Shown piece after piece: positions 48,681-63,061 of a stretch of DNA of 64,000 bases. A model generated the notes under the pieces. It did no database searches, was not told the origin of the DNA, and worked only from the letters and a program-made list of their open reading frames with translations. Where the stretch lies: positions 160,001 to 224,000 of the forward strand of contig JBHLOY010000003.1 in assembly GCA_048939995.1 (NCBI GenBank). Reading direction: 5' to 3'. A program made the position numbers and the translations under genes. The stretch comes from Promethearchaeota archaeon (GTDB taxonomy: Archaea > Asgardarchaeota > Lokiarchaeia > Sigyniarchaeales > SOKP01). The stretch's first letter is position 1; each line of letters starts with the position of its first letter.

Positions 48681-49361
48681 ATGTCAAAAAAAGTATCTAA
48701 ACCATTCCTTTTAGCTCTTGTAGTATTGGTTACAGCACTTCTTGGTTTAGGTTTATTTCTTTCCGCTGGAACTTTTCTTTGGCTTGAAGCATGGATTTAT
48801 TTATGCATCTTTTTTACTTTTTTTACAGTTTATATTTTTTATTTTAATAAAAATGATCCCGAAATGCTTCAGAAAAGAGCAAAACCAAAGTTCGAAAAAA
48901 CATGGGATAAAATAGTTGTGCTTCTTATGTTTTTTGGATTTTTTCCAACCTTTATATTACCCGGTTTTGAAAGAAGGTTTATCTGGTCAAATGTTACATT
49001 AATCGTTGAAATTATTGGATTTATTGGAATGTCATTAGGATTGATAATTATATTCCTCGTCATGAAAGAAAACACCTTTTTATCGAAAACTGTAGAGATT
49101 CAAAAAGATCGTGGTCATAAAGTAATTACTACTGGACCTTATAGAATTGTGCGCCATCCTATGTATCTAGGGTTTATTTTATTTATTTTGTTTTATTGTT
49201 TAGCGGTTGGTTCTCTTTATTCGCTTATTCCAGCTGGTCTTGGCACTATCGGTATATTGATACGTACAATTTTAGAAGATCGCCTATTGCATAAAGAACT
49301 TGAAGGATACAATGAATATGCCCAGAAGGTCAAGAAAAAATTAATTCCATTAATATGGTAA
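48681..49361 (+). CDS. Isoprenylcysteine carboxyl methyltransferase (ICMT/Ste14/PEMT) family membrane protein
   Basis: EN.F.S..V.IQ, H.VITTGPY.IVRHPMY.G, ED..L..EL.GY.EY and LIP.IW. Confidence 0.9.
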   Translation: MSKKVSKPFLLALVVLVTALLGLGLFLSAGTFLWLEAWIYLCIFFTFFTVYIFYFNKNDPEMLQKRAKPKFEKTWDKIVVLLMFFGFFPTFILPGFERRFIWSNVTLIVEIIGFIGMSLGLIIIFLVMKENTFLSKTVEIQKDRGHKVITTGPYRIVRHPMYLGFILFILFYCLAVGSLYSLIPAGLGTIGILIRTILEDRLLHKELEGYNEYAQKVKKKLIPLIW

Positions 49362-49469
49362 GGAATCAATTTTGAACTAGAAATGACCATTATCTAAATA
49401 ATATTAAATTTTTTATAATGGTGCTAAATGTCTTAAATAATTGGATGAAAATAATTAATTAACAAATAA

Positions 49470-50324
49470 ATGCAATTTTTATTAGCACTGTCCTATTTTG
49501 ATCGAAAAATGGGACCTTGTGTATTTTATTCATATCCAGAGCATAAATTGAAAGAAGAAAATGCTTCAATCATTGCTAATTTAATGGACCAAATGATCTC
49601 AGAAGGATTCTTTACTCATTCATTTAATTCATTCTATACAATAAATTACTATTTTGAAATTGATTCAGAATGGGCTAGGGGAAAAAAAGAGTTCTTAATG
49701 ATATCAATAATATTTAAGCAACCAGTTTCTATTGAGACTGAGAAGGCATTATTTACTCTTTGTATTGAATTTATAGAATGGTTAAAAGCAAAAAAAGATA
49801 TTTTTAGTGCCTTTTATTTTAACACTGAGATAGATAATCAAAAGTATCATAATGATATCGAATATAATTTTAAGTTAATCATTGATTGGGTTCAAGAATT
49901 TAGTTTTGCAATAGAAGATGAGATTCAGAATAACCTAAAAGAGTTTAATATCTCTTCATTATTGGAGAAGCAAGAAGTTTTAGAAACTCTTAAGCTTTTA
50001 TCTGAGAAACCTTTACCAATAAGAGAATTGAAGACGTGGTATAATAAGGATTTTCCTCATAATAATTTTAACCAGCTTATTACTACATTGTTTAAGTGTT
50101 ACATTGTTTATATTCCAAAGATAGGAGGAAGGAAAGAAGCCCCTTTTAACGTTCATTTGACAAAAGAATTTAAAACTATAATTAAGCTAGTTGTTCTAAA
50201 AAACAAGCTTATTAAGGAATTTATAAAAAGCCATTTGTCAAAAGCTATACAAGATTTAGAAAAAAATTCCAAAGAATTTCATAAGTTTTTAGAAAGAGTA
50301 TTTTCTGAAAAACAGGTAATATAG
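49470..50324 (+). CDS. Longin/uDENN-like domain protein with C-terminal winged helix
   Basis: LSYFD.KMGP.V..SYP start, Y.FEI.S.WARG..E...ISII; helical/WH-like C-terminus. Confidence 0.6.
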   Translation: MQFLLALSYFDRKMGPCVFYSYPEHKLKEENASIIANLMDQMISEGFFTHSFNSFYTINYYFEIDSEWARGKKEFLMISIIFKQPVSIETEKALFTLCIEFIEWLKAKKDIFSAFYFNTEIDNQKYHNDIEYNFKLIIDWVQEFSFAIEDEIQNNLKEFNISSLLEKQEVLETLKLLSEKPLPIRELKTWYNKDFPHNNFNQLITTLFKCYIVYIPKIGGRKEAPFNVHLTKEFKTIIKLVVLKNKLIKEFIKSHLSKAIQDLEKNSKEFHKFLERVFSEKQVI

Positions 50325-50325
50325 C

Positions 50326-51474
50326 TTAATAAAATGGATTATGAAACCTCTTCGTATCTCGTTTTTCTATGGTTTTTTGCCTGATTTCTTTATTGATTAA
50401 ACCTTCAATATGACACAAATATTCATATTCATCTGCTAAACATAACGTAATAGCAGTACCACGCTTATTCATGCGTGAAGTTCTTCCAATTCGATGTATA
50501 TATACATCAGGGTACTTAGGAACGTCATAATTGATTATGTGAGTAATATTTTCAATATCTAATCCTCTAGCAGCCACATCTGTTGCTATTAACATATTAA
50601 TTTTATGTTCTCTAAATGATTTTAAAATTTTTTCACGTTTATGTTGTGTTAATCTTCCAGAAATCATATCAACGCGATATTTAAAATTATTTTTTGACTT
50701 TAACTTGCTGGCTAACCATGAAGCTGTTTTCTTAGTATTAACAAATACTAAGGTATGGTGAGGATTTTCAATTTTTAATATCTGTAAAAATGTACTAAAT
50801 TTTTCTTCAAAACGATCTATTAAATAGTAATATTGCTTAGTATTACCAACCGTTAGGTCATCTTTACTAAGATTTATGAATTTAAAATCATTTTTTGAAT
50901 GCTTTTTTACCAATTTTCTAATCTGTGAATAAAGTGTTGCTGAAAAAAGCATAAATTGATATTCAGTTCTTATTTTGCTCAAAATATAGTTGACATCGGG
51001 GGCGAATCCCATATCAAATAGGCGATCAGCCTCATCAATTACAACAAATTTTATGTTGTTAAAATTTAATTTCTTTCTTTTGTAAATATCAATAAGTCTT
51101 CCTGGTGTTCCACATATAAAATTAACTCCCTTTTCTAGATCCTCAATTTGGCGATCTATTGATACTCCCCCATAAATTGTTGTAGATTTAATGGTATGAT
51201 TTCCTAATTCTTTTAAGACTTGATCTACTTGTTTTGCAAGTTCTCTTGTCGGTTCTAAAATCAAAACTTCATTCGATTTGCCACTTAATTTTTCAATAAT
51301 TGGTAGTAAGAAAGCTAATGTTTTTCCACTTCCAGTTTTAGCTTGAACCATTGTATGGTATCCGCTTAATATTGCAGGAATAGCAGTTTTTTGTACTGGA
51401 GTTGGTCGAATTATTTCTAACCTTTGTAAAGCATTAATTAAAAACTCACTAATGCCCAATTCTTTAAAACTCAA
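50326..51474 (-). CDS. DEAD-box ATP-dependent RNA helicase
   Basis: PTPVQ, AKTGSGKT, PTRELA, TPGR, DEAD, SAT, ARGLD and HRIGRTSR. Confidence 0.96.
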   Translation of the reverse strand: MSFKELGISEFLINALQRLEIIRPTPVQKTAIPAILSGYHTMVQAKTGSGKTLAFLLPIIEKLSGKSNEVLILEPTRELAKQVDQVLKELGNHTIKSTTIYGGVSIDRQIEDLEKGVNFICGTPGRLIDIYKRKKLNFNNIKFVVIDEADRLFDMGFAPDVNYILSKIRTEYQFMLFSATLYSQIRKLVKKHSKNDFKFINLSKDDLTVGNTKQYYYLIDRFEEKFSTFLQILKIENPHHTLVFVNTKKTASWLASKLKSKNNFKYRVDMISGRLTQHKREKILKSFREHKINMLIATDVAARGLDIENITHIINYDVPKYPDVYIHRIGRTSRMNKRGTAITLCLADEYEYLCHIEGLINKEIRQKTIEKRDTKRFHNPFY

Positions 51475-51633
51475 TTTTAATATAACCTTAAAAATCTTCT
51501 TATTTCTCTCTCGTCAAATAATAAAAAGGTTGATAAAAGAAAAACCTTTGTAATTTACACTATTAAATTTATTTAAAATTAGAAATTTATAGAAAACACA
51601 TTTCTCTAATTATCTTATTTTTTATTAATAAAT

Positions 51634-53805
51634 TTAAATTTCAAATATCACTTGCTTTGTAAGAATATCTAACTTTTGGAGTTTTTTATTCATAAAAATC
51701 CTCACTTTTGACGAGCTAATTTTAGGATTATTAAAAAAAAGATCTTGAACAACAGTTTCATACTTTTTTCCCTTATTAGCTAATTTTCGATGAACTGGAT
51801 TTTCATTATTGTAAATTGGTATTGGAAATGAAAAAGGTCTTTTATGGATATGGCGACTGGATTTGATTAATCTTATATTCTTACTGAGTATATTAGAATT
51901 AAGAATTGATGATAGAAAGTATGCTTCATTTGCCAAGTCAGTGGAAAGATAATAGTTTTCAGACCCTATTATTACATCTTTTTCTTGATTATCAAGGACT
52001 GCTGCCTTAATCATCGAACCGCTGGCATTATATACAACAATGAAACGTTTATTATGATATTGCTTTGAAAGTTTATTCCAATAATTAAGGTTTGAAAATA
52101 AAGTCTGAATTTTGCTTGTAGTTTTCTTCTTGTTTTGGTAAATTTCATTTAGCTCATTATATAGCTTAAACGCTTTGGGGTATCTTTTTAGATACAAGAC
52201 ATTAAATTCAAATTTTTCATCAATAGGTAAAAACACATTCCTTAGTTTCTTTATATAAAATGGAATTAAATCTATATTCAGAAAGCTTTGAAAACTAAAT
52301 CCTTTTTCTATTTCTCTATGTTCAAATTTAAAGAACCAATTTTTCTTAACTCGAGTTAAAATGTCTAGATCTGAGGATATTTCAAGAAATTTACTAGTTT
52401 CATGATCAATTTTAAAAAATACAAGACTTCTTGGAACTAAGGTAGCTCCTTGAAAAAATAAATTCTTGTATCCACTTACTGAAAGAGCATTTAGGTCTTT
52501 AATCTGTTTTTCAGGAAGTATTATTTTAGCACCATTTTTTTCTAGTTTAATAGTATCATATAACGCTGTTTCTTGGAGTTCCAAATTATCATTGAAAATT
52601 TTTGTAGGGATAGGATATTTATTTGAAATAGATTCTTCACTAAATCTCCCATTATATCGTGCTTTAAGACATATATGGTCGACATTAAAGAAATAGTTCT
52701 TTGGAAAATCCCAAATCTCTAAACTATCAAAAGTAGTAAACTTTCTGAACTTATAACAATGATCTCCGTTAAGCACACTTTTTGTAATTACAAAGAAGAT
52801 TTTTCCCCTTTTTTTTAAATATTCTCTTGGAATTGCATAAAAAAATATAGATGCTAATTCAATATGAGTAATGTATTGACTTGGAGGTTTTATACTTAAA
52901 GAATCAGCTAGCTCTCTAATTTTACGTTGGTAGGTCTTATTAAAAATATCTTTATATGTAAGCCATGGAGGATTTCCAATAACTAAGTCAAAAGAGTTCT
53001 TCAAATTATAGTTATTTTTTTCTGCTTGCATAGGGAAAAGTGTATCCATATAATTTAATGTAGGTCCCTTTAGTTTAGGTTCATTAGGGTTAAAAAAATC
53101 TAAGATAATTAGCTTGAGATTAACTTTAGCAGTCAATATAGCTATTGGATTAACATCAAATCCGTAAATATTGTTAATTGCATCAATCTTTTCATCATTT
53201 GGTTGCTTAGAATTTAATATTTTTAATAGGATCTCAATTAAAAATTTGCCTGAACCACATGAGGGATCTAAAACCTTTTTCCCTATTTCATAAAAATCTT
53301 CAACCATCATTCTCACTAAATTACTAGAAGTATAGAATTCTCCTAATCGATGTCTAGTTACAGGGATAATAATTTGTTGGTAAAGTTCATGAAATAAATC
53401 TTCATATGAAAAATCGACGTTATTTAAAATTTCATGTACCTTCTCAAATGTTGTATGAAACAATGAATTTAGATTAAAAACTTTAAATTCGTCAAAGTCA
53501 TCTTTCAACACTTCATAATAATGTTTCTGGGCATTTGGAACTTGTACCCCCCTCATTTTTTTTGTTAGAATTAGTCTTAGAATTTGAATATAATAGGAGT
53601 ATTTAATGAATAAATCATAACTAAGTTCAAGACCATTAACTTTCCGAAATAGAGTTTTAAAACCATTGAACTTCCCTTGTAATTTACTTCCTTTTCCAAC
53701 TTTTTTCTTTAAAAGGTTTTCAATTTCTTCTTTATAAATTTGGGAGTTTAATCCAAAAAATTTTACAATATAATCAGAATTTATTACTTTTTTATCCTCA
53801 ACCAT
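51634..53805 (-). CDS. Gamma-class N6-adenine DNA methyltransferase with target-recognition region (type IIG-like, no clear nuclease domain)
   Basis: GEFYT, LDPSCGSGKF, GFDVNP.A, GNPPW; C-terminal YFLSSILNS...HIHK...PIP. Confidence 0.85.
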   Translation of the reverse strand: MVEDKKVINSDYIVKFFGLNSQIYKEEIENLLKKKVGKGSKLQGKFNGFKTLFRKVNGLELSYDLFIKYSYYIQILRLILTKKMRGVQVPNAQKHYYEVLKDDFDEFKVFNLNSLFHTTFEKVHEILNNVDFSYEDLFHELYQQIIIPVTRHRLGEFYTSSNLVRMMVEDFYEIGKKVLDPSCGSGKFLIEILLKILNSKQPNDEKIDAINNIYGFDVNPIAILTAKVNLKLIILDFFNPNEPKLKGPTLNYMDTLFPMQAEKNNYNLKNSFDLVIGNPPWLTYKDIFNKTYQRKIRELADSLSIKPPSQYITHIELASIFFYAIPREYLKKRGKIFFVITKSVLNGDHCYKFRKFTTFDSLEIWDFPKNYFFNVDHICLKARYNGRFSEESISNKYPIPTKIFNDNLELQETALYDTIKLEKNGAKIILPEKQIKDLNALSVSGYKNLFFQGATLVPRSLVFFKIDHETSKFLEISSDLDILTRVKKNWFFKFEHREIEKGFSFQSFLNIDLIPFYIKKLRNVFLPIDEKFEFNVLYLKRYPKAFKLYNELNEIYQNKKKTTSKIQTLFSNLNYWNKLSKQYHNKRFIVVYNASGSMIKAAVLDNQEKDVIIGSENYYLSTDLANEAYFLSSILNSNILSKNIRLIKSSRHIHKRPFSFPIPIYNNENPVHRKLANKGKKYETVVQDLFFNNPKISSSKVRIFMNKKLQKLDILTKQVIFEI

Positions 53806-53933
53806 CCTTTATCAAATATCCAATCCCAATCGAAATTATCCTCAGAGCTAATCTCTACTTTTGATGTGAAATTTAATTCTATATCTTTAATCTGCTTAGT
53901 ATTTTCTTTTTCTTTATCTCTATTCTGATTCAT
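53784..53933 (-). CDS. Small ORF (49 aa) absent from the supplied track
   Basis: Manual translation MNQNRDKEKENTKQIKDIELNFTSKVEISSEDNFDWDWIFDKGWLRIKK*; starts 19 bp after the upstream stop and overlaps the methylase start by 22 bp. Confidence 0.55.
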   Translation of the reverse strand: MNQNRDKEKENTKQIKDIELNFTSKVEISSEDNFDWDWIFDKGWLRIKK

Positions 53934-53952
53934 CTTCGTTTTAACTTTTAAT

Positions 53953-54492
53953 TTAATTCCTCATAAAAGTTGGAAGCATCATACTAAAAATCTGAGCGAT
54001 ACTCCGTAATTTTGTAGTCTCCTTGATGATAGTTACAATTAATATTGATTTTTCTAATTCATCTTTATCCAAAGACCCTCCAGAGTATATAGCTTTTTCT
54101 GAATTAAATAATAATAAATATCTAACATTGGGGTTATTTATTATATTTATTCCCTCTGTTTGTTTTAAAGCATCATAAATTTCTTGGTAACCTTTTGGAA
54201 TCCCCCCCCTATCATTAGTAATTATTAAAACTGGAACTCCTCTTTTAGCTAGTCTTTTTAACTCAGTAGCATAAAACATGTCTACTTTTGGTGAAACTAT
54301 ATTTAATTGTGTTCCCGTGGAATTAATAAATTCAATTAATTCATCATTTAATCTATATTTTTTATTAGAACCGCCTGAAGATACTAAATTCATCATTCCT
54401 ACGAGAGATAATACCTTGCTTTCTAATTCTTGTACTTGTTTCTTAAGCTTCTGATTTTCAATCCGAAGCTCAGTAAGTCTATTTTCTGACAA
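53953..54492 (-). CDS. Coiled coil plus PLD/TrmB-like domain lacking the HKD motif
   Basis: LI.FINS....L.IVSP, L....KRGV.V.IIT, then VRYLLLFNSEKAIYSGGSL in place of HxKxxxxD...GSxN. Confidence 0.6.
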   Translation of the reverse strand: MSENRLTELRIENQKLKKQVQELESKVLSLVGMMNLVSSGGSNKKYRLNDELIEFINSTGTQLNIVSPKVDMFYATELKRLAKRGVPVLIITNDRGGIPKGYQEIYDALKQTEGINIINNPNVRYLLLFNSEKAIYSGGSLDKDELEKSILIVTIIKETTKLRSIAQIFSMMLPTFMRN

Positions 54493-54574
54493 AGTTAATT
54501 ATTAAAATATTTAATTTTTATATACTATTTAAAATACTAAATTTTTATAAATCTTTCTTAAAAGAAATTTGGCT

Positions 54575-57157
54575 TCAAATTAACTTTTTCCAAGGTTTTC
54601 CGAAAAGCACATAACTTGAAATAGCTAGAGAGCTTTGTAAGTCAATACTTACACTTCCTTGTGAATCGCTTATATCCTTAAACTTGCTTTCAACAAGCTT
54701 AGTTACTTTATTAGCCATACATGCTTGTCGAGCTTTTAAAAGAGCTATCCCTTGGTTCTCTTTATTAAATAAGTTTATATAAAAATTAGCGTTAATTTCT
54801 TTTGTCTCATCATCAAAAATAGGATAATTGCGTGTGACAATACCGGTAATCTTCTCATAATCAAACTGTTTTCCGACTTCTCCTAAAATATGTGGAGCAT
54901 TCCTAATTTTGTTCCCATTAATATCAAAAACTTGGGTATTGAAAAATAAAAACGGTTGAATATTTGTGTTATTTCTTCTTATCGAATCTTGGATTTCTTT
55001 TATTGTAAGTATTTGACTATCATTAGTAATAAAGAAACTATCATTTGGATTCCAAGGAGAATAAAAGAGATTTCCTACAAAATGAATAATATGATTTGGA
55101 ACATCCATAATATGTGATAAGATAGCTTTTTTTGTTGAGTTTATTCCCGTAAGTATGGTTATACTTTCGATTTCCTTTACCTCATTAAAGAACTCCGTAA
55201 TAAAGTTTAATTCATTAGCGCCAGAGACAAATGGAAAAATTAACTCTTTATTTTTCGTAGTTTCATTCCATTTAAAAGGTCCTTGAGTATTTATAGAGTC
55301 AATCAATAATATATGATATTTAATGGGTGGAGTGTTAATTTCATTCCCTCCTTTTATATCCTGTTCAAAAGTGACACCACCTAAAGGTGGTTCTCCAATT
55401 ACATACCCTATTGAATATTTCAATAGAAAGAAATTATTATCATAAACTAACTCGAAAGGAATAGTCATTTGATCCAATATAAAATAGATTTCTGGTATAA
55501 ATGTTAGAGTCTCGATCTCAAACTGCTTTAATAGTTTTCTTATTGGTTTGGGAAGAAAAATGAATAATAATTTTCCAAATTCCATAAGATTAAAGTCATA
55601 TTTCTTGACTTCATGATTAGAAAAGATATCATTATAAATTTCATTAATTTGAGTATCATTCCAATATTCATTTAAAACTTTTCCATTAATTACTTTTCCA
55701 TCTTTTGACATCATTCTGTAAGAGATTAGCCCTTCTTTATTAATTCTAAGAATTATTTGTTTAATTATGAATTGATCTAATTCGAAATGGAATGATTCCC
55801 CCTCAAATGAATAAATATTTTGTTGCAATAATTCCGTCTCATGATATAATACAGCAGGATCTAAGATCATAGATTTGAGGTTTTTATCTAAAAACGGAAT
55901 AATTTTACGAGCAAGATTATAATCTTCTTCTTCAAATAATGCGCGATAGAACATTGTGCGCCAGAAATCTCTAGGTTCCAACGAAAAAAACATAGAGTTA
56001 AATTGCCAGAGATAATTACATGTATAAAAATAATGAAAAATTTGTGAATTACTCTCGGGTATCTTTAAATGATTATTCAATTTTTCAAGAGATTGTAGGA
56101 GAAAACTTTTTTCTTTCATATCAACAAAATTTTTACAAGCCTCAACCCATAATTCAATTAAATTATTGTCGTATCCTAAATCTGTTTCAGCAATAAATAT
56201 ATCTTCAAGAAAGTCATAAATTTCGAAAGCTATTTCAAACCTATTCCGCGTAATAGCGAAATTTATGTAACTTCTGATATAGGTTATAGCATCAACGAAA
56301 GATTGAAACTTTTTGATCTTTTCAAAAAGAATCTTTACAATTACTAAGATCCAAGAGAACTCTCCAATATTATTCAAGTAATAGATTAACTCTTCAAGAT
56401 CTACCAAAATCTCTTTAAAATTTCTTTCATTTATTGATACTCTACTTAACTTACCGAACTCATCCTTTAAATATCCTGGAAGGCGATTAACTAAAATTTT
56501 AGTCATAATTTGTACAAAATCAGATGAGTCTTCCACCAAATTATACTTAGAATTTATATTTTCTAAAAAAATATACAAAAACAAGGCCCTTTTATTAGGT
56601 TCTAATTTAAATAGAGTTTTTCCTAATATTTCAGTACTAAAATGAAAAAATTCTTGAGGTATAACAGATTTTCTCAAATACATTAATAGAATCTGCAATT
56701 CAATTAATTTCTGATACTCCTGCTTCTCAATAACCTTTACACAAAAAGAATTTATATATTTGGTAATCCCTTGTTGGGATAAATCATCCATTTTAATGAA
56801 TGATTGAAGTAGTGCAGTTCCAAAATTATTAAAAATATAAAAATCATCTATTTTTGATAAAAATGAAAAGAATCGTTTATAGGCATCAACATATTTAATC
56901 ATATCGATATCTACTTTTCCTTCTTTTCTTTGAATCAAAGAATTAATGTACATCCACCAAGAATTTGATATAATCATCATTAATTGATGCTTTTTCTGAA
57001 TGTCTAGCCATTCAGTTTTTTCAACCTCAAAATAAAGATCAGTTAGCAGTCTATCTGCCCATCTATGGTTCCCAGATTGTAGCAAACGCCTACCTTGTAT
57101 TACTTTTTGTTGGAAATCCTCTAAAAAAGTGCTTTTTTTATTTAAGATAGTTGTCAT
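54575..57157 (-). CDS. Helical-repeat (TPR-like) protein with a degenerate C-terminal CHAT (caspase-fold) domain
   Basis: FG..LF..LP, LD...IPFEL.YD...FL..KY.IG, E...I, IIHFVGN, FFNTQ, F...FY..L, G.AL..AR and YVLFG.P. Confidence 0.72.
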   Translation of the reverse strand: MTTILNKKSTFLEDFQQKVIQGRRLLQSGNHRWADRLLTDLYFEVEKTEWLDIQKKHQLMMIISNSWWMYINSLIQRKEGKVDIDMIKYVDAYKRFFSFLSKIDDFYIFNNFGTALLQSFIKMDDLSQQGITKYINSFCVKVIEKQEYQKLIELQILLMYLRKSVIPQEFFHFSTEILGKTLFKLEPNKRALFLYIFLENINSKYNLVEDSSDFVQIMTKILVNRLPGYLKDEFGKLSRVSINERNFKEILVDLEELIYYLNNIGEFSWILVIVKILFEKIKKFQSFVDAITYIRSYINFAITRNRFEIAFEIYDFLEDIFIAETDLGYDNNLIELWVEACKNFVDMKEKSFLLQSLEKLNNHLKIPESNSQIFHYFYTCNYLWQFNSMFFSLEPRDFWRTMFYRALFEEEDYNLARKIIPFLDKNLKSMILDPAVLYHETELLQQNIYSFEGESFHFELDQFIIKQIILRINKEGLISYRMMSKDGKVINGKVLNEYWNDTQINEIYNDIFSNHEVKKYDFNLMEFGKLLFIFLPKPIRKLLKQFEIETLTFIPEIYFILDQMTIPFELVYDNNFFLLKYSIGYVIGEPPLGGVTFEQDIKGGNEINTPPIKYHILLIDSINTQGPFKWNETTKNKELIFPFVSGANELNFITEFFNEVKEIESITILTGINSTKKAILSHIMDVPNHIIHFVGNLFYSPWNPNDSFFITNDSQILTIKEIQDSIRRNNTNIQPFLFFNTQVFDINGNKIRNAPHILGEVGKQFDYEKITGIVTRNYPIFDDETKEINANFYINLFNKENQGIALLKARQACMANKVTKLVESKFKDISDSQGSVSIDLQSSLAISSYVLFGKPWKKLI

Positions 57158-57184
57158 AAACTTAAACTCTTTTTTATTTTGGTG

Positions 57185-58327
57185 CTATAAATTTGGGTTC
57201 TCAATCCAACCTTTATCTAACTTTTCTTTAGTATATAATATTGATGCACCTATCCATCCCATATTTTCTCTGCCAGAAGCCGCTATAACTTTAATTTTGT
57301 CTTTTATTTTCTCAGAGAAGTATTTTTGTAATTCAAATTGAATTCTCTTATCTAATCCAGTGATCAAACTTCCACCTCCTGATAAAATAATATTCCCCAA
57401 TAAATCTTCCCAATTTTCTCTTTCCCAGGTCTTAATTACTTTTGAAATGGATTCTGGAAGACCTATATAATCTACATGAGCAAGTTTTGGATTGAATAGG
57501 GGTTCAGATAATAGAAACCGTTCTAAATTTATTTTTAAATCAGATCCATCAGGAAGATCTATTACTCTATCATATTTCGTTACTCCCCCTTTCACTTTTT
57601 TTAGCTCTTCTTGAGGATTTAGCACACATAATGACAATTTTTCTTTAATTTCTTTTGCAATTGATTTATCAATATAGACATTTTTTGATGTGCCAATACG
57701 GGTTAAAATTAAATTCAAAAAGTAACTTGTCAAATCTTTACCGGCAATAGGAAAAACATCTCGGGCCATTATATTGGTGAAACCATGAAATATTGTAGAT
57801 ATATAAGTGTTAGATTCTCCCATACTCACAATAACCCCACTAGCTTTTTGAAGTGTGGAAAGAATAGCTTGACTTTCATGCAAAAAAAGGAGGTATGGAA
57901 ATTTTAATGAATTAAAAAATAAGTGTTGTAATTTCGATTTCTCTAAATCTGACATGAAAAAAGGAGATATGATAATTAAAGGGTGCTTAAATTGATCTTC
58001 TTTATTGATTTTTAGCTGTTTATAATAATGTAAAAAGAACTTAAGCAAAATGTTAAAATTGTGTTCTTTTTTAAATTCATGAATTTTTAGAATATTTTGA
58101 TATTTCAGTGCCTGGTGTCCTACCAAATGAGGTGTCTGATCATTCTGAAAAAATAATTCTTCTAGGCCCTCAATGACATCAGAAGAGAATAAATAATCAG
58201 AAACGTCAACATATACACTTGGAGCAATAATATCTGGAAAATCTTCACCTGCCCATCCTATTCTTGAATTTGCGGTCCCAATATCAAGGATTAAAGGATT
58301 AGTCTGATCTCTTAATTTCGATGCCAT
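57185..58327 (-). CDS. Actin-related protein (divergent Asgard actin/ARP)
   Basis: ILDIGT..SRIGWAGED.P....PS, AG.DLT.Y, EIKEKL, LPDG..L....ERF..SEPLFNP, NIILSGG.S...GL..RI..EL and WIGASIL. Confidence 0.92.
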   Translation of the reverse strand: MASKLRDQTNPLILDIGTANSRIGWAGEDFPDIIAPSVYVDVSDYLFSSDVIEGLEELFFQNDQTPHLVGHQALKYQNILKIHEFKKEHNFNILLKFFLHYYKQLKINKEDQFKHPLIIISPFFMSDLEKSKLQHLFFNSLKFPYLLFLHESQAILSTLQKASGVIVSMGESNTYISTIFHGFTNIMARDVFPIAGKDLTSYFLNLILTRIGTSKNVYIDKSIAKEIKEKLSLCVLNPQEELKKVKGGVTKYDRVIDLPDGSDLKINLERFLLSEPLFNPKLAHVDYIGLPESISKVIKTWERENWEDLLGNIILSGGGSLITGLDKRIQFELQKYFSEKIKDKIKVIAASGRENMGWIGASILYTKEKLDKGWIENPNL

Positions 58328-58357
58328 AAAAAATCTTCTTCTACATTAATTCCAAAT

Positions 58358-59107
58358 TTAGAGAATTCTTTGTTGATGAACGTACTCGTCAGCAAGTCTC
58401 TTAAGTTGATATTCTTTAATCTGCAACTCTAATAAACCTAATACTTTTTTAAACTCACTCGACATAGATTCTATGTCAACATCTGCAAGCTTCTCAACTT
58501 CATCCCGCTTAATTTTAAATTGTTCTAAGTTAAATTGAATTTTTTCATGTAATTTATTGATTGAACTAACTAAATCCTCTGTATTCTTCTTAGTGATTTT
58601 TCTCATTTTCCTAAGAATTGCTAAAATAGCTGACACAGAATTCTCCCACATTTCATAGCGTTCATTATATCCTTGAAAAAAGTCCTCAAAGAATTGAGCT
58701 AACTTGAAATAGATACTATCTTTCTTAGAAATTGAAGACTTCTTAGTAAGCTCTTTTACTGATGAAATTACTTCTTTTTCTTCTTTTACACTCTCTACAG
58801 GTTTCTCCACACTTTTCTCTTTTTCAGTTACCGTAGTTCGGTCCTTAGTTTGACCACGTTCTGATAGTGGCACCTCTTCCATCATATAATCTTCAGCAAT
58901 TTTCTTTTTAGCTTCATATGAAAGTTGAGGTTCAATTTTCTTCTCTTCTTCTTTTGGTGCTATATAACCAGTATCTTCTGAAAATGCTTTAAGTAAATCT
59001 TGTAAAGCGGTTTCAGTTTTCTTTGAACTCTTTAATGCTGTATCAAGAGTGTAACTAGAAACTGTATCTTCTTCCTTTACCTTTTCTTTTTTCTTTTTCT
59101 TTCCCAT
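58358..59107 (-). CDS. Hypothetical protein with K/E-rich disordered N-half and helical/coiled-coil C-half
   Basis: 249-aa ORF separated by about 30-bp gaps from both co-oriented neighbours. Confidence 0.75.
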   Translation of the reverse strand: MGKKKKKEKVKEEDTVSSYTLDTALKSSKKTETALQDLLKAFSEDTGYIAPKEEEKKIEPQLSYEAKKKIAEDYMMEEVPLSERGQTKDRTTVTEKEKSVEKPVESVKEEKEVISSVKELTKKSSISKKDSIYFKLAQFFEDFFQGYNERYEMWENSVSAILAILRKMRKITKKNTEDLVSSINKLHEKIQFNLEQFKIKRDEVEKLADVDIESMSSEFKKVLGLLELQIKEYQLKRLADEYVHQQRIL

Positions 59108-59138
59108 TTGAAGTGATCAACATTTTCTGTTTATTATA

Positions 59139-59540
59139 TTATTCTAATGGAAGAACTTCTACTTTTATAGCCTCTCCTTTTTCTCTTAGAACTTTTCTAA
59201 GCTCGTCAAGATTATCTGGGCTTTCAGAAATCACTGTCCATTCAGCAGTCTTATCTTTTTCGATAATTACTGCTTCACTATACATCATACTAAGACCTTG
59301 TTCCCCAAACGTACCAGCAAGTTTTGCAAGCGCTCCTGGAACATCTTTCATAGTTATTCTTAGCTTTATTGGCCTTTTTTCATCTGATAAACCTATAGGC
59401 GTAATCTTAATTTCTTTATTTTCTGAATCAGCTACTAACATTAGCTGAGAATTCGTTGTAAGGCCCAAACTCTTTCGAATTAACTGAGGAATTACAATTC
59501 TGCCTCTATTATCAATTGTGATCACTCTGACTTCTTTCAT
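59139..59540 (-). CDS. AbrB/MazE-type DNA-binding domain plus ACT domain regulator
   Basis: ID.RGRIVIP..IRK.LG and D.PGALA.L ACT motif. Confidence 0.88.
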   Translation of the reverse strand: MKEVRVITIDNRGRIVIPQLIRKSLGLTTNSQLMLVADSENKEIKITPIGLSDEKRPIKLRITMKDVPGALAKLAGTFGEQGLSMMYSEAVIIEKDKTAEWTVISESPDNLDELRKVLREKGEAIKVEVLPLE

Positions 59541-59718
59541 AGTATCAAGTTTTTGTAATTTTAGTTATAATTATTATTAAATTTCGAATATAAAAATTTT
59601 ATATTTAGACGTATGTTAAAAAAGAGATTTAAGAAAAAAATTTATCTTTAATTAAGTTTAAATAACATTTCTATTTAATTTTACACTTTAAAGTTTCTAT
59701 AAGCTTTTTCTATTAGCT

Positions 59719-60108
59719 TTATTCTTGAATTGCTTTTAAATGAGCTTTTGCATTGAGTGGTAATAAAGGTGCACATGCCATGAGTTTACTAACATCTCCT
59801 TCAACAACGTATGATCCAGACATAGTTGCCTGAATTGGGTCAGATTCTCCCGAATTAACTTTCTTAATCGTTTCAAAGTTTGTCTTATGAATAATTATTG
59901 GAACTTTAGTCCCCGAATATTGACCCATTCCCCAATCCATCTTACTTTTATTAATGAATTGCCAGTAACTCATCTCTGGTTTATCAGTAATTTTATATTG
60001 AAATACCAATGGTGCAACTGGTTCTAATAGTTGTGCTAAACCTTGTAACTCATTATAGGCTTTCATGAAACGTGAAAGATATTGTTTCCATTCTTCTTTT
60101 GTCTCCAA
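59719..60108 (-). CDS. SCP2 (sterol carrier protein 2-like) lipid-binding protein
   Basis: G..DP.QA.MSG...VEGD...LM signature; strong SD GGAGGTGA (60117-60124) 8 nt before TTG 60108; the track start at 60261 is the alternative. Confidence 0.8.
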   Translation of the reverse strand: METKEEWKQYLSRFMKAYNELQGLAQLLEPVAPLVFQYKITDKPEMSYWQFINKSKMDWGMGQYSGTKVPIIIHKTNFETIKKVNSGESDPIQATMSGSYVVEGDVSKLMACAPLLPLNAKAHLKAIQE

Positions 60109-60253
60109 ATTTATTTTCACCTCCTTTATTTTTTGATTCTTAATTTTTGGTTTGTTAAAATTGATATGATTAATTATAATGCCTTTTTCACTGACTTTTT
60201 GAGTCATTAGTTCTATATCATATGTTGGAGATCTTATATCCTCTACTTCTTCA

Positions 60254-60397
60254 TTACTCATGCAATTTAAAGGATCTATTGCTTTCTCTATTAAGAAATA
60301 TAATATATCCTATCCGAAGGGTTGAGGAACCAATTGAAGTGTAATTGAAATGATCAAATTTGTTATTATTGTAATCTCTAGTAGTTATAAACTTCAT
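60254..60397 (-). CDS. Possible small ORF (47 aa) inside the biosynthetic cluster
   Basis: Manual translation MKFITTRDYNNNKFDHFNYTSIGSSTLRIGYIIFLNRESNRSFKLHE*; co-oriented with the cluster; only a weak SD. Confidence 0.25.
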   Translation of the reverse strand: MKFITTRDYNNNKFDHFNYTSIGSSTLRIGYIIFLNRESNRSFKLHE

Positions 60398-60443
60398 ATT
60401 TATTGATTTCCCTTGATTATTTTAATTTTTAAATAGAGATAAT

Positions 60444-61616
60444 CTACATATAAGAATCAAGGCCCGCTTTACAACCCATTCCTAAGAAATCTACCATCGC
60501 GCCGTTATAGTCATTTTCGATTTTATAGTAAAGACCTTTATTTGTAAATGTAACTCCCCAAATGAACTTACTTGATTTGCTTTGAAGTGGAGTTTTCTCA
60601 ACAAAATCTTTCATTAAGGGATGTAAATGCACTGGAACCTCCTTTGGGTCATCACACGCCATCCCAAAGCACAAACGTTCTAACTCTTCTGAAGTCCAAT
60701 TAAAAGTAAAATTTAGATGGACTGCTTTACGACAACTTTCCATTATTTCGCTAGAGGCGGGCTTGAGTCCTAAGTCCTCAACAAGTGCAATAGTGCTTTC
60801 GTATAGGGATCTAGCAGGCTGCTTAAGCATAAAGTAAATATTGGTGGTATTATGCAAGAAATCAAATGCAAAAAGACTAAATGCTGTTAAACCATGTTTA
60901 TCAAAGTATTCTCTATAATTTTTCATACTTTCTGGGATTGACTTCATCGTATAAATTGGATCTATGGAACCTGGTACTATGAATGGCCAAATCTTTGATA
61001 AACCACTTGTTGCATCTATATCCACCCCATAACCCATTATATCAAATGTGTTTATAACCTCTACTATCATATCATGGATAGGATGTCCATTCTTCTCGAT
61101 TAATTTTTTATTTACAGCTGTAGTATAAGGATCTGGATTATGAGGGATAAAGAATTCAACATATCGTACGGCTACATCTCTTTTTTCGGCTGGTTTTGTT
61201 GTTGTTCTCATCGATATTGGTGCCCCTCTAAAGAATTTTTCATAAGCATTTAATGTCCTCCAAATAGCTTCTTCATTAAATGCTACTCTAGTAAAATTAC
61301 AAATAATTGAAATATCCTTTACCATCTGAGTGAGATCTGTATTGCATTTAAAATTAGATTGTACCTTTGGTAGGTATTTATCATAATTTATTCCAAGCTT
61401 TTGTAGATCTCCTATCATAGTTGGTTGAAAAGCTGGAGGGGTTACTTCAAACAAAGCTACTACTAAATCAATCTCAGCTACTTCACTTCCATTGCGTTCT
61501 ATACATTTTTTTTCCGCAGCTTCAAAAAGTGCTGGTCTTACAGCTGGTCTCACCATTTCTGGGATTCCTAAAATTACCTTCTCAAAAAGGCTTTTTACTT
61601 CTGGTTGCCATTTCAT
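60444..61616 (-). CDS. ABBA-type (CloQ/NphB, PT-barrel) aromatic prenyltransferase with N-terminal PCP_red/DUF2621-like helical domain
   Basis: L.AY..FF, MRTTT.P...RD..VRY, DPY..A, YGVD.D...GL.KIW.F, S.FAFDF...T.NIYF, F.W.S...ERLCF and YYKIE.DY; N-terminal W..E....F......IP..VR......AE. Confidence 0.8.
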   Translation of the reverse strand: MKWQPEVKSLFEKVILGIPEMVRPAVRPALFEAAEKKCIERNGSEVAEIDLVVALFEVTPPAFQPTMIGDLQKLGINYDKYLPKVQSNFKCNTDLTQMVKDISIICNFTRVAFNEEAIWRTLNAYEKFFRGAPISMRTTTKPAEKRDVAVRYVEFFIPHNPDPYTTAVNKKLIEKNGHPIHDMIVEVINTFDIMGYGVDIDATSGLSKIWPFIVPGSIDPIYTMKSIPESMKNYREYFDKHGLTAFSLFAFDFLHNTTNIYFMLKQPARSLYESTIALVEDLGLKPASSEIMESCRKAVHLNFTFNWTSEELERLCFGMACDDPKEVPVHLHPLMKDFVEKTPLQSKSSKFIWGVTFTNKGLYYKIENDYNGAMVDFLGMGCKAGLDSYM

Positions 61617-61645
61617 TTTATTTTAACCTCTTCTATTTTAATTAA

Positions 61646-63061
61646 TTAATTTTGATATTTTGCAAATTGAATTTGGCTCAATTCAGCAAACCCTTCTGGA
61701 TTATTGAAACCAAGACCTGGCATCATCCATCTTGGATTTTTCTCACCATATTGCCTCAATAGGTGGAATAAGTCTGTCTCTTTAATTTGTGGTGATATAT
61801 AAAACCTAGGTTTTAGTAAATTCTCATTCTGTTGTATTATTCCCTCTTCTTCAGCAATACGTTGAAGTGGAGTATGGGGGTAGATTCTCATCCCTATAAA
61901 TATGATAACATCTCCATCACCTTGCCATAGATTTCTCTTATAGTTTTCTAAAGTTTCTAACCGATCTAACGAGATTCTAATACTTTTAAGAGTCTCTCCT
62001 GGGCCTCCAACAATAACATGTATCAATTGTTCGATTCCTAAATCAAAGCACTTTTTTGAAGTAAGAATCGCATCATCTGAAGTTCTTTCTTTATTCATAT
62101 TTTTTAACATCTCTTCAGAAAGAGATTCTATACCCGTAGCAAAGTGAATAGCACCACTTTCTCTCATCATCGGCATTAAATCAAGAAATTTTCTACTAGG
62201 AACGTAATTTGCTCCCCAGTTAATATCAATTTTTTGTTTAATAATCTCTTGACATGTTTCCTTTACGTGATCATAATTTAAGTTGAATAAACTATCTACA
62301 ATAAAAATATTTTTAATTCCATAATTGTTTATTATTATATCTAATTCTTCTGCAATGTTTTTCGGAGATCGATAACGAACATTGGACCCTTCTATGTATT
62401 TATAACTACAATAAATACAATTCATTGGGCAACCGCGTTTAGTTTGAATATTAGCCCAAATCGGACCCGATTTTTTCATAGGATCAATAAGGTATGCATC
62501 ATTATCTATTAAGGCCCTTAATGGAAAAGGAAGTTCATTTAAATTTTCAACTCGCCATGGTGGACTTTGGTGGTATTTACCCGTATTGCTTAGAAAGCAT
62601 ACACCGCGTTCAATTTTTTTGGGATTCTCATGATTTTTAATCTTTTCTAATATTTCAGCAAATACAAGTTCACCATCCCCAACAACGCCTATATCGTGCT
62701 TTAAATCACGTAAAATCTCCTCCGAAAAAATAGAAAACCCTGCTCCACCTAAAATTATTGGAATATGGGGCTCAACTAGTTGTTTAAGGTATTGAAGAAT
62801 ATTTTTAACGGGTAGATAAAAAAATAGATTCCCAGGATAAGTAGTTGAATCGACATTTCTGATCGAAAAACCTATTACGTGAGGATTAAAGTCATATATT
62901 GCTTTCGAAATATCTTGTTTATAATTATTACTTAAAGTCAAATCTAGTAACTTCACTTCATGACCTCGATTCATTAAGAAAGAAGCTAAATATGCTTCTC
63001 CTATTGGAGGTACCATCACATGGACTATCTCTCGACTTCCAGAAATTATTAACACTCTCAC
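61646..63061 (-). CDS. Cobalamin-binding radical SAM enzyme (class B; TsrM/lipid-associated type)
   Basis: PPIG.AYLA, GFSIRNVD, GG.GFS, G.GE, QTKRGCPMNCIYC, GIESLS and GGPGET. Confidence 0.9.
   Translation of the reverse strand: MRVLIISGSREIVHVMVPPIGEAYLASFLMNRGHEVKLLDLTLSNNYKQDISKAIYDFNPHVIGFSIRNVDSTTYPGNLFFYLPVKNILQYLKQLVEPHIPIILGGAGFSIFSEEILRDLKHDIGVVGDGELVFAEILEKIKNHENPKKIERGVCFLSNTGKYHQSPPWRVENLNELPFPLRALIDNDAYLIDPMKKSGPIWANIQTKRGCPMNCIYCSYKYIEGSNVRYRSPKNIAEELDIIINNYGIKNIFIVDSLFNLNYDHVKETCQEIIKQKIDINWGANYVPSRKFLDLMPMMRESGAIHFATGIESLSEEMLKNMNKERTSDDAILTSKKCFDLGIEQLIHVIVGGPGETLKSIRISLDRLETLENYKRNLWQGDGDVIIFIGMRIYPHTPLQRIAEEEGIIQQNENLLKPRFYISPQIKETDLFHLLRQYGEKNPRWMMPGLGFNNPEGFAELSQIQFAKYQN

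Follow-up and report, generated by a model that had tools for sequence, protein, structure and literature searches.

In eukaryotes an actin-related protein (ARP) can be a fixed subunit of an assembly and not a polymer, as in Arp2/3, dynactin (Arp1/Arp11) and INO80 (Arp4/Arp8). An archaeal actin gene set among partner genes is known from the crenarchaeal arcade cluster, which holds crenactin and the arcadins. Here we consider a locus within 64,000 nucleotides of a Promethearchaeota genome (GCA_048939995.1, contig JBHLOY010000003.1, positions 160,001 to 224,000 of the forward strand), a stretch we call the window. The genome is 3.75 Mb long with ~30% GC and is a Loki-type Asgard archaeon. It is labelled G000 and the window is G000:C28:160001-224000; G and L labels mark the genomes and loci compared. 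Four adjacent genes in the window encode a basic helical protein (CC249), a divergent ARP, a protein with a solenoid and a caspase-like CHAT domain (pseudo-CHAT) and a small protein with a PLD fold (PLD179). These four genes are the core of a cassette that occurs in an order of Loki-type Asgard archaea to which the cultured Candidatus Lokiarchaeum ossiferum (Ca. L. ossiferum) belongs. All three enzyme folds of the cassette (ARP, CHAT and PLD) are real and their catalytic residues are lost family-wide.

The cassette is like the arcade cluster in that an archaeal actin-family gene has lineage-specific partner genes alongside it. Its partners have unrelated folds, however, namely a pseudo-caspase and a pseudo-PLD protein. 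Unlike crenactin, the cassette actin is a fast-evolving ARP that exists beside a separate filament actin, Lokiactin. With the eukaryotic ARP complexes it shares only the idea of an ARP as a fixed subunit. The companions resemble no known subunit of those complexes, and the best solved relatives of the cassette ARP are conventional actins. The comparison is an analogy only.

The companions have parallels of their own. Csx29 of the type III-E CRISPR Craspase and eukaryotic separase share the layout of a solenoid followed by a CHAT domain with the 860-aa protein, and their catalytic His-Cys dyads are H585/C627 and H2003/C2029 (PMC9729208). Our protein has Asn and Gln in these places. Its gene also lacks the Cas7-11, Csx30, securin or cohesin context of those systems and has an ARP as its partner gene. 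FAM83 DUF1669 and TrmB/TrmBL2 use a PLD fold without a working HKD motif for binding rather than catalysis, and the fold of PLD179 is alike. TrmBL2 has a coiled coil ahead of its PLD-like domain, as PLD179 does. Unlike the TrmB family, PLD179 stands alone at 179 aa with neither a winged helix-turn-helix (wHTH) nor a sugar-binding C-terminal subdomain.

Ca. L. ossiferum has four actin-family genes, all transcribed by reverse transcription quantitative PCR, with Lokiactin several-fold higher (Rodrigues-Oliveira et al. 2022, PMC9834061). One of our compared genomes, G138, matches the B35 genome of this species. It carries the cassette and the same number of actin-family genes, one of which is the cassette ARP (C1:4586738-4587760). 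In the part of that paper available to us the ARPs are listed without gene context, partners or function, and neither the cassette nor its pseudo-enzymes appear. Full-text literature searches returned no paper describing this cassette.

The four-gene core

An earlier note on this DNA, made from the letters alone, had described six minus-strand open reading frames (ORFs) with gaps of 31, 30, 27, 82 and 19 bp as an operon running into a DNA methylase. All six ORFs are in the ORF list in the order AbrB-ACT, CC249, ARP, pseudo-CHAT, PLD179 and a 49-aa ORF, with exactly these gaps. Strand, short gaps and conserved order all speak for a putative operon as far as sequence data can. What survives comparison is the four-gene core, together with the AbrB-ACT gene at its head in the window's own family (f1). 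The 49-aa ORF and the methylase have to be removed from it. The first 22 nt of the methylase gene also belong to the 49-aa ORF, which has no match in Pfam or NCBIfam searches. A tblastn search finds it in only 6 of ~20 loci, and mostly as the last 20 residues alone. In several loci just 22-23 nt lie between the genes that flank its position. It is probably spurious and no real gene.

Scanning species-representative genomes with the ARP gave 29 loci, all from Promethearchaeota and Loki-type metagenome-assembled genomes (MAGs). By tblastn these 29 species loci have the order AbrB-ACT, CC249, ARP, pseudo-CHAT, PLD179, methylase, DEAD helicase whenever the contig extends that far. Median gaps within the cassette are 38, 48, 24.5 and 89.5 nt. 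Outside it they are 197 nt (PLD179 to methylase) and 134 nt. Insertions of 1.5-5 kb occur at the PLD179/methylase junction (four loci) and at the methylase/helicase junction. Between AbrB-ACT and PLD179 there are only two exceptions. L031 has ~4 kb between AbrB-ACT and CC249, and the other is L023 (L023:8598-11128), where an extra partial ARP (residues 1-129) precedes the full ARP gene by ~1 kb as a result of local duplication or insertion.

A pseudo-CHAT profile was searched against 400 Asgard genomes. It is present in 117 of the 134 f1 genomes, where the cassette is single-copy at a fixed locus. In the sister families it is present in the only f2 genome and in 7 of 14 f3 genomes. Weak matches to the CHAT domain alone occur in 3/3 f5 and 1/2 f6 genomes, and the profile finds nothing in ~240 genomes of other Asgard families. 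The f2 and f3 loci keep CC249, ARP, pseudo-CHAT and PLD179 adjacent and in the same order while the flanks have changed. Identities to the window proteins are 29-38% for CC249, 30-35% for the ARP, 23-26% for pseudo-CHAT and 29-44% for PLD179. The synteny that the earlier note had put up for checking therefore holds down to 23-44% identity in two sister families. Neither the methylase nor the helicase is beside the cassette in f2 and f3. The methylase is an f1-specific neighbour outside the core.

The core is itself made of two nested pairs. In the sister families the two inner genes, ARP and CHAT, share 4 nt in L067 and L068 and are separated by 3 nt in L065 and 5 nt in L069; such an arrangement is typical of translational coupling. 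The PLD179 profile matches 12 of 14 f3 genomes, more than the pseudo-CHAT profile does. In G135 and G137 (genus g18) the gene order is Hef, PHP, CC249, PLD179 and an unknown 405-aa protein, with the two small genes directly adjacent. In G132 (genus g15) it is AbrB-ACT, CC249, PLD179 and then a gelsolin-like gene. These three genomes have no pseudo-CHAT match, and the only actin orthogroups they have are three others. Since both members are absent where CC249 and PLD179 stay adjacent, the ARP and pseudo-CHAT are a two-gene unit nested in the CC249/PLD179 pair. The simpler reading of the direction is that the inner pair was lost in g15 and g18, because it is present in f1, f2 and four f3 genera.

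One locus, L028 (L028:10001-13508), looked like an ARP-CHAT fusion, and this was rejected. In this single MAG the ARP is truncated, CHAT starts 3 nt on in a different frame, and the CHAT gene is split into two pieces. This is cassette decay or an assembly error.

Three enzyme folds without their catalytic residues

The earlier note had held that the ARP, CHAT and PLD proteins all have degenerate active sites, and each case bears this out in the orthologues as well as in the window. Family calls were made by Pfam and NCBIfam profile searches with curated cut-offs. The ARP belongs to the actin family (PF00022, 165.6 bits against a cut-off of 27, residues 7-375). We aligned 29 cassette ARP orthologues with the genome's own Lokiactin. 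The phosphate-2 loop is S-M-G-E-S-N-T-Y in the window ARP and D-I-G-D-G-V-S-H in Lokiactin. The window protein thus lacks the first Asp and the His that mark a Lokiactin-like ATPase loop. Its f1 orthologues read N-[IM]-G-E-S-x-T-[YS], and the f3 proteins read D-x-G-[HY]-[YF]-S-T-R with a degenerate adenosine motif too. Phosphate-1 (LDIG...GWAG; DxG) is retained, and the f1 proteins also retain the adenosine motif LSGGGSLIPG and a Gln aligned with the MQAV motif of Lokiactin. The D-loop region holds a conserved family-specific insertion. It must be noted that another Loki ARP orthogroup likewise has a degenerate phosphate-2 loop, so that trait alone is not unusual.

In a quick IQ-TREE tree of every actin-family gene of five genomes plus seven f1 orthologues, the cassette ARPs are a single group (SH-aLRT 99-100) on branches that exceed Lokiactin's in length by a factor of ~4 to 90. 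Lokiactin itself is 89-92% identical across the same genomes. The earlier note had compared its proposed complex with eukaryotic non-polymerising ARP complexes. The best relatives among PDB sequences are actins (E 4.6e-37 and weaker), and all 60 matches listed are conventional actins, with neither Arp2/3 nor nuclear ARPs among them. The window genome has four actin-family genes in all, counting the cassette ARP. A different actin paralogue of 508 aa lies outside the window (L003, G000:C28:69883-73833). It has an insertion in its C-terminal half with four CxxC pairs that resembles two zinc ribbons, and orthologues of 500-555 aa occur in all sister genomes examined.

The CHAT call for the 860-aa protein is modest by sequence (28.9 bits against a cut-off of 24, residues 530-724), and a PDB sequence search, with the single sequence or as a profile, gave no match. 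Fold search alone succeeded. An AlphaFold2 (AF2) model (pLDDT 78.8) has a helical solenoid over residues 1-447, then a small beta domain and a caspase-like domain at ~524-830. The full-length model is placed by Foldseek closest to the TPR-CHAT protein Csx29 (4.9e-8), next to the CHAT anti-sigma factor DdvA and next to human separase (~1e-4). VIA with residues 612-820 gave Z 14.0 to SAVED-CHAT (rmsd 4.0, 171 aligned) and Z 10-11 to caspases and metacaspases. The predicted structure therefore has the layout of TPR-CHAT proteins and separase, in which a single chain carries a helical solenoid N-terminal to its caspase-like domain.

A profile of 18 orthologues was searched against 1.84 billion representatives and found 160 proteins. 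About 20 of these are full-length relatives; the others are distant CHAT proteins that match residues 646-820. We set the dyad columns with hmmalign against ~90 distant active CHAT proteins (HYAGH, LNAC). The window protein has Asn696 (HFVGN) in the His column and Gln742 (FFNTQ) in the Cys column, so the dyad is gone. Among all full-length relatives the His column is N, rarely S, T, Y or V, and the Cys column is mostly Q, R or K and once L. Across the family the ORFs are uninterrupted at 830-867 aa. A dyad replaced family-wide by Asn and Gln, Arg or Lys, in ORFs that stay intact, points to purifying selection on a putative non-catalytic function. A strongly conserved stretch of low pLDDT at 564-610 was considered as an interface candidate and dropped, since its part up to ~590 is a canonical CHAT motif of active CHAT proteins.

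PLD179 scores 24.6 bits for PLDc_2, below the cut-off of 27, so again the fold is the better guide. Its AF2 model (pLDDT 84.6) has a helix at 3-29 and then a PLD fold. VIA gave Z 19.1 to NucT (rmsd 2.1, 141 aligned), 17.3 to Nuc, 17.1 and 16.4 to two FAM83 DUF1669 entries and 13-14 to TrmB and TrmBL2. The place of the HKD motif, HxK(x)4D, is taken by [RKT]-[YFM]-L-[LM]-x-F-N in 21/21 orthologues (R-Y-L...N in the window), which leaves neither the catalytic His nor the Lys at the site. There is no wHTH, the chain opening with the coiled coil, and profile searches gave no match to HTH families. The resemblance to TrmB and TrmBL2 is thus to their effector part, across coiled coil and PLD fold. 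A PLD179 profile search returned 396 clusters. None of the 120 listed has a Pfam annotation, and the named members are all Asgard MAG records. One distant homologue matches Pfam Regulator_TrmB (2.4e-4). The TrmB link therefore stands on the fold and this one weak match.

CC249 is conserved in f1, f2 and f3. Its N-terminus is polybasic with a lysine run, and a variable, acidic linker connects this to a C-terminal domain of ~125 aa, which is helical and highly conserved. It has no Pfam, NCBIfam or PADLOC family and ESM Atlas gives only its own cluster. Longer fused forms were looked for and none was found, which is weak evidence. AbrB-ACT matches TIGR01439 (33.5 bits, cut-off 28.3) and MazE_antitoxin (28, cut-off 24.7), with a borderline ACT domain (25.2 bits against 27). 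Of 28 loci, 27 have it directly upstream of CC249, and the median gap is 38 nt. It is the first gene of the cassette in f1, f2 and one f3 genus and is absent from that place in G143, G138, G133 and G142. From its domains, AbrB-ACT is probably a ligand-responsive transcription factor of the operon.

A candidate assembly and its alternatives

We argue that this vertically inherited cassette encodes a non-enzymatic ARP assembly that most likely serves the Lokiactin cytoskeleton as a regulator, cap or anchor, and we hold this with moderate confidence. The four proteins would bind one another in an assembly that probably has no enzymatic activity. At its centre would be the divergent ARP and pseudo-CHAT, a complex of obligate partners. 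The caspase-like pocket, still intact and holding Asn and Gln (or Arg/Lys), may grip a peptide segment without cutting it. Securin occupies separase and FLIP pairs with caspase-8, and both are models for such uncut peptide binding. The two older partners, the polybasic CC249 and the TrmB-like PLD179 dimerised by its zipper, may dimerise or anchor the assembly. In f1 the AbrB-ACT protein at the head probably couples expression to a small-molecule signal. The ARP would be held as a non-polymerising subunit, and through it the assembly would act on Lokiactin. What weakly favours the cytoskeletal role is the ARP fold together with the gelsolin-like, roadblock and GTPase genes of the wider f1 neighbourhood; in G132 a gelsolin-like gene comes directly after PLD179. 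In a bolder version, which we think possible but not likely, pseudo-CHAT clamps the ARP and presents a template, cap or anchor for Lokiactin, which would be an ARP complex in the style of a forerunner.

Several observations weigh against our proposal. The link to the cytoskeleton comes solely from the ARP fold and from loosely linked neighbours with gaps of 100-230 nt. Five f1 genomes that are 92-99% complete are without all four genes, so the cassette is non-essential, with the caveat that the genes are adjacent and a single assembly gap could explain each case. The complete genome G261 (L013) lacks PLD179 only, so PLD179 is dispensable there. The nucleotide motifs also vary, with GES and LSGGGS in f1 and GH[YF]S or GYYS with CGNGG, CGQGV or IGNGG in f3. 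ATP use by the ARP is therefore uncertain, and its loss in the window protein is unproven from these motifs. The same variation means that the nucleotide site is not what selection conserves.

One can imagine a scenario where the cassette ARP makes its own filaments and its three companions are dedicated regulators, which would amount to a second, specialised cytoskeleton. Operon-encoded partners are usual for prokaryotic actins (arcade cluster, ParMRC), and the retained LSGGGSLIPG, phosphate-1 DxG and MQAV-aligned Gln of the f1 proteins fit such a filament. This requires a polymerising actin whose phosphate-2 loop is degenerate with residues that differ between families, whose D-loop region is replaced by a family-specific insertion and which evolves many times faster than filament-forming Lokiactin. 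We consider that unlikely. The residual TrmB likeness leads to another scenario, a module associated with DNA or chromatin like nuclear Arp4/Arp8, in which CC249 and PLD179 bind DNA or chromatin proteins. PLD179 matches the archaeal chromatin protein TrmBL2 over both coiled coil and PLD fold, its distant homologue has the Regulator_TrmB match, CC249 opens with lysines, and genes connected with DNA lie around the cassette (Hef and PHP in f3, adenine methylase and DEAD helicase in f1, AbrB at the head). The flanking DNA genes vary by family, though, and Hef is elsewhere in G000. PLD179 has no wHTH and an HSA-type helicase is absent. Polybasic tracts also bind acidic lipids. We regard this scenario as a genuine alternative, though an unlikely one.

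It could also be that the genes are merely co-regulated or are hitch-hiking neighbours whose products form no physical complex. Most of our loci come from one family with high long-range synteny, where the YjeF-to-GTPase block is kept too. That does not account for a core that survives the replacement of its flanks, for insertions that strike around it and almost never inside, for the 4-nt ARP/CHAT overlap in two loci or for the joint absence of that pair in two genera. We give this reading only a slim chance. A domesticated or decayed anti-virus defence island is the least plausible of all. Defence systems are typically built from parts such as TPR-CHAT proteins, PLD nucleases, type IIG-like methylases and helicases, and among solved structures the 860-aa protein is closest to CRISPR-associated Csx29 and CBASS-linked CHAT proteins. 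However, no PADLOC model fits any of the five cassette proteins tested, which gave only two marginal unrelated matches of 14-17 bits; it is the methylase and helicase neighbours that match generic models. Those neighbours are unlinked outside f1, catalytic residues are missing in every member, and a single-copy fixed locus in 117/134 family genomes is inherited with the species.

If the bolder version of our proposal is true, dedicated actin regulators built on an ARP evolved in Asgard archaea, either independently of the complexes of the Arp2/3 and dynactin type or earlier than them. The archaeal lineage closest to eukaryotes would then have possessed a separase-like scaffold as well. The cassette is also a clean natural example of how three different enzyme folds, among them one with the architecture of separase and Csx29, have become non-catalytic components of a single unit. 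Asgard archaea have several ARPs, and literature searches gave no partner or function for any of them. At the very least the cassette names three candidate partners for one archaeal ARP, in Ca. L. ossiferum, a species that can be cultured and imaged. What archaeal ARPs do becomes approachable by pull-down, multimer-model and localisation experiments.

Flanking genes and feature coordinates

Table 1. Coordinates and basis of assignment for the cassette genes, their neighbours and related modules. Ranges given without a locus label are positions in the window.
Feature	Position	Strand	Basis or remark
AbrB/SpoVT-ACT regulator, 133 aa	59139-59540	-	TIGR01439, Pfam MazE_antitoxin, borderline ACT
CC249, basic helical orphan protein, 249 aa, core	58358-59107	-	Ortholog alignment, no family
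Cassette ARP, actin fold, 380 aa, core	57185-58327	-	Pfam Actin (PF00022) and motifs
Pseudo-CHAT, TPR-like solenoid and caspase-like CHAT, 860 aa, core	54575-57157	-	Pfam CHAT (PF12770), AF2, Foldseek, VIA
PLD179, coiled coil and PLD fold without HKD, 179 aa, core	53953-54492	-	AF2, VIA
49-aa ORF, probably not a gene	53784-53933	-	Unconserved; no family match
N6-adenine methyltransferase, 723 aa, non-core neighbour	51634-53805	-	Pfam/NCBIfam N6_Mtase/Eco57I, motifs
DEAD-box helicase, 382 aa, neighbour in f1 only	50326-51474	-	Pfam and synteny
Gelsolin-like, roadblock and VWA genes	L012:4299-8076		ORF clustering
Same genes in the window's genome	L073:7472-12828 = G000:C28:231472-236828		Just past the window end, with YjeF
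Hef-cassette block of f3	L065:5092-14653; likewise L066, L068, L069, L101, L103		Cassette, or CC249 and PLD179 alone, tightly packed
Distant PLD-like module	L106:10192-14297, L107:3410-7653, L104:7475-9733		

ORF clustering in f1 gives a longer block with many eukaryote-like genes, made up of YjeF, gelsolin-like, roadblock/LC7, a VWA protein of 730 aa, the cassette, methylase, DEAD helicase and an Arf/Ras-like GTPase. A metallophosphoesterase and an IFT52-GIFT protein come next on the opposite strand. G000 and its closest relative (L005) have a prenyl-aromatic cluster inserted between the VWA gene and AbrB-ACT. In G239, examined to tell true loss of the genes from a gap in the assembly, none of the cluster genes is upstream of the DEAD-helicase match, which is itself only 67% identical and maybe a paralogue. 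The 723-aa methylase is of the type IIG kind, with motifs I and IV intact in the translation, and type IIG model matches cover the methyltransferase part only. About 20 f1 species have it at a fixed locus. Restriction-modification genes do not usually behave in this way, and the enzyme may instead methylate DNA or RNA in a housekeeping role.

The f3 block consists of Hef (helicase, ERCC4, HhH), a PHP protein, the four cassette genes and the conserved unknown 405-aa protein. In G000, Hef is on a different contig from the cassette. The G000 Hef ortholog (G000:C19:130446-132749) is ~4 kb from the Lokiactin gene (G000:C19:136513-137625), and in f3 Hef adjoins the ARP cassette.

An Rfam scan of region 49000-62000 found no family and a repeat search found no meaningful repeats there. 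A TATA-like AT-rich palindromic stretch is common to the spacers upstream of PLD179 (54505-54551) and AbrB-ACT (59560-59606), over 47 nt and 70% complementary. The shared stretch could be two promoters, or chance in DNA of 28% GC. With TATA-like boxes upstream of both genes, an internal promoter ahead of PLD179 is possible.

Distant coiled-coil PLD-like homologues occur in other orders of the class, beside a small protein of 129 aa and a coiled-coil protein of 378 aa whose C-terminal HTH is weak. This module is distinct from the cassette and apparently undescribed. In L106 and L107 an Arf/Roc-type GTPase of 573-575 aa is the next gene in it.

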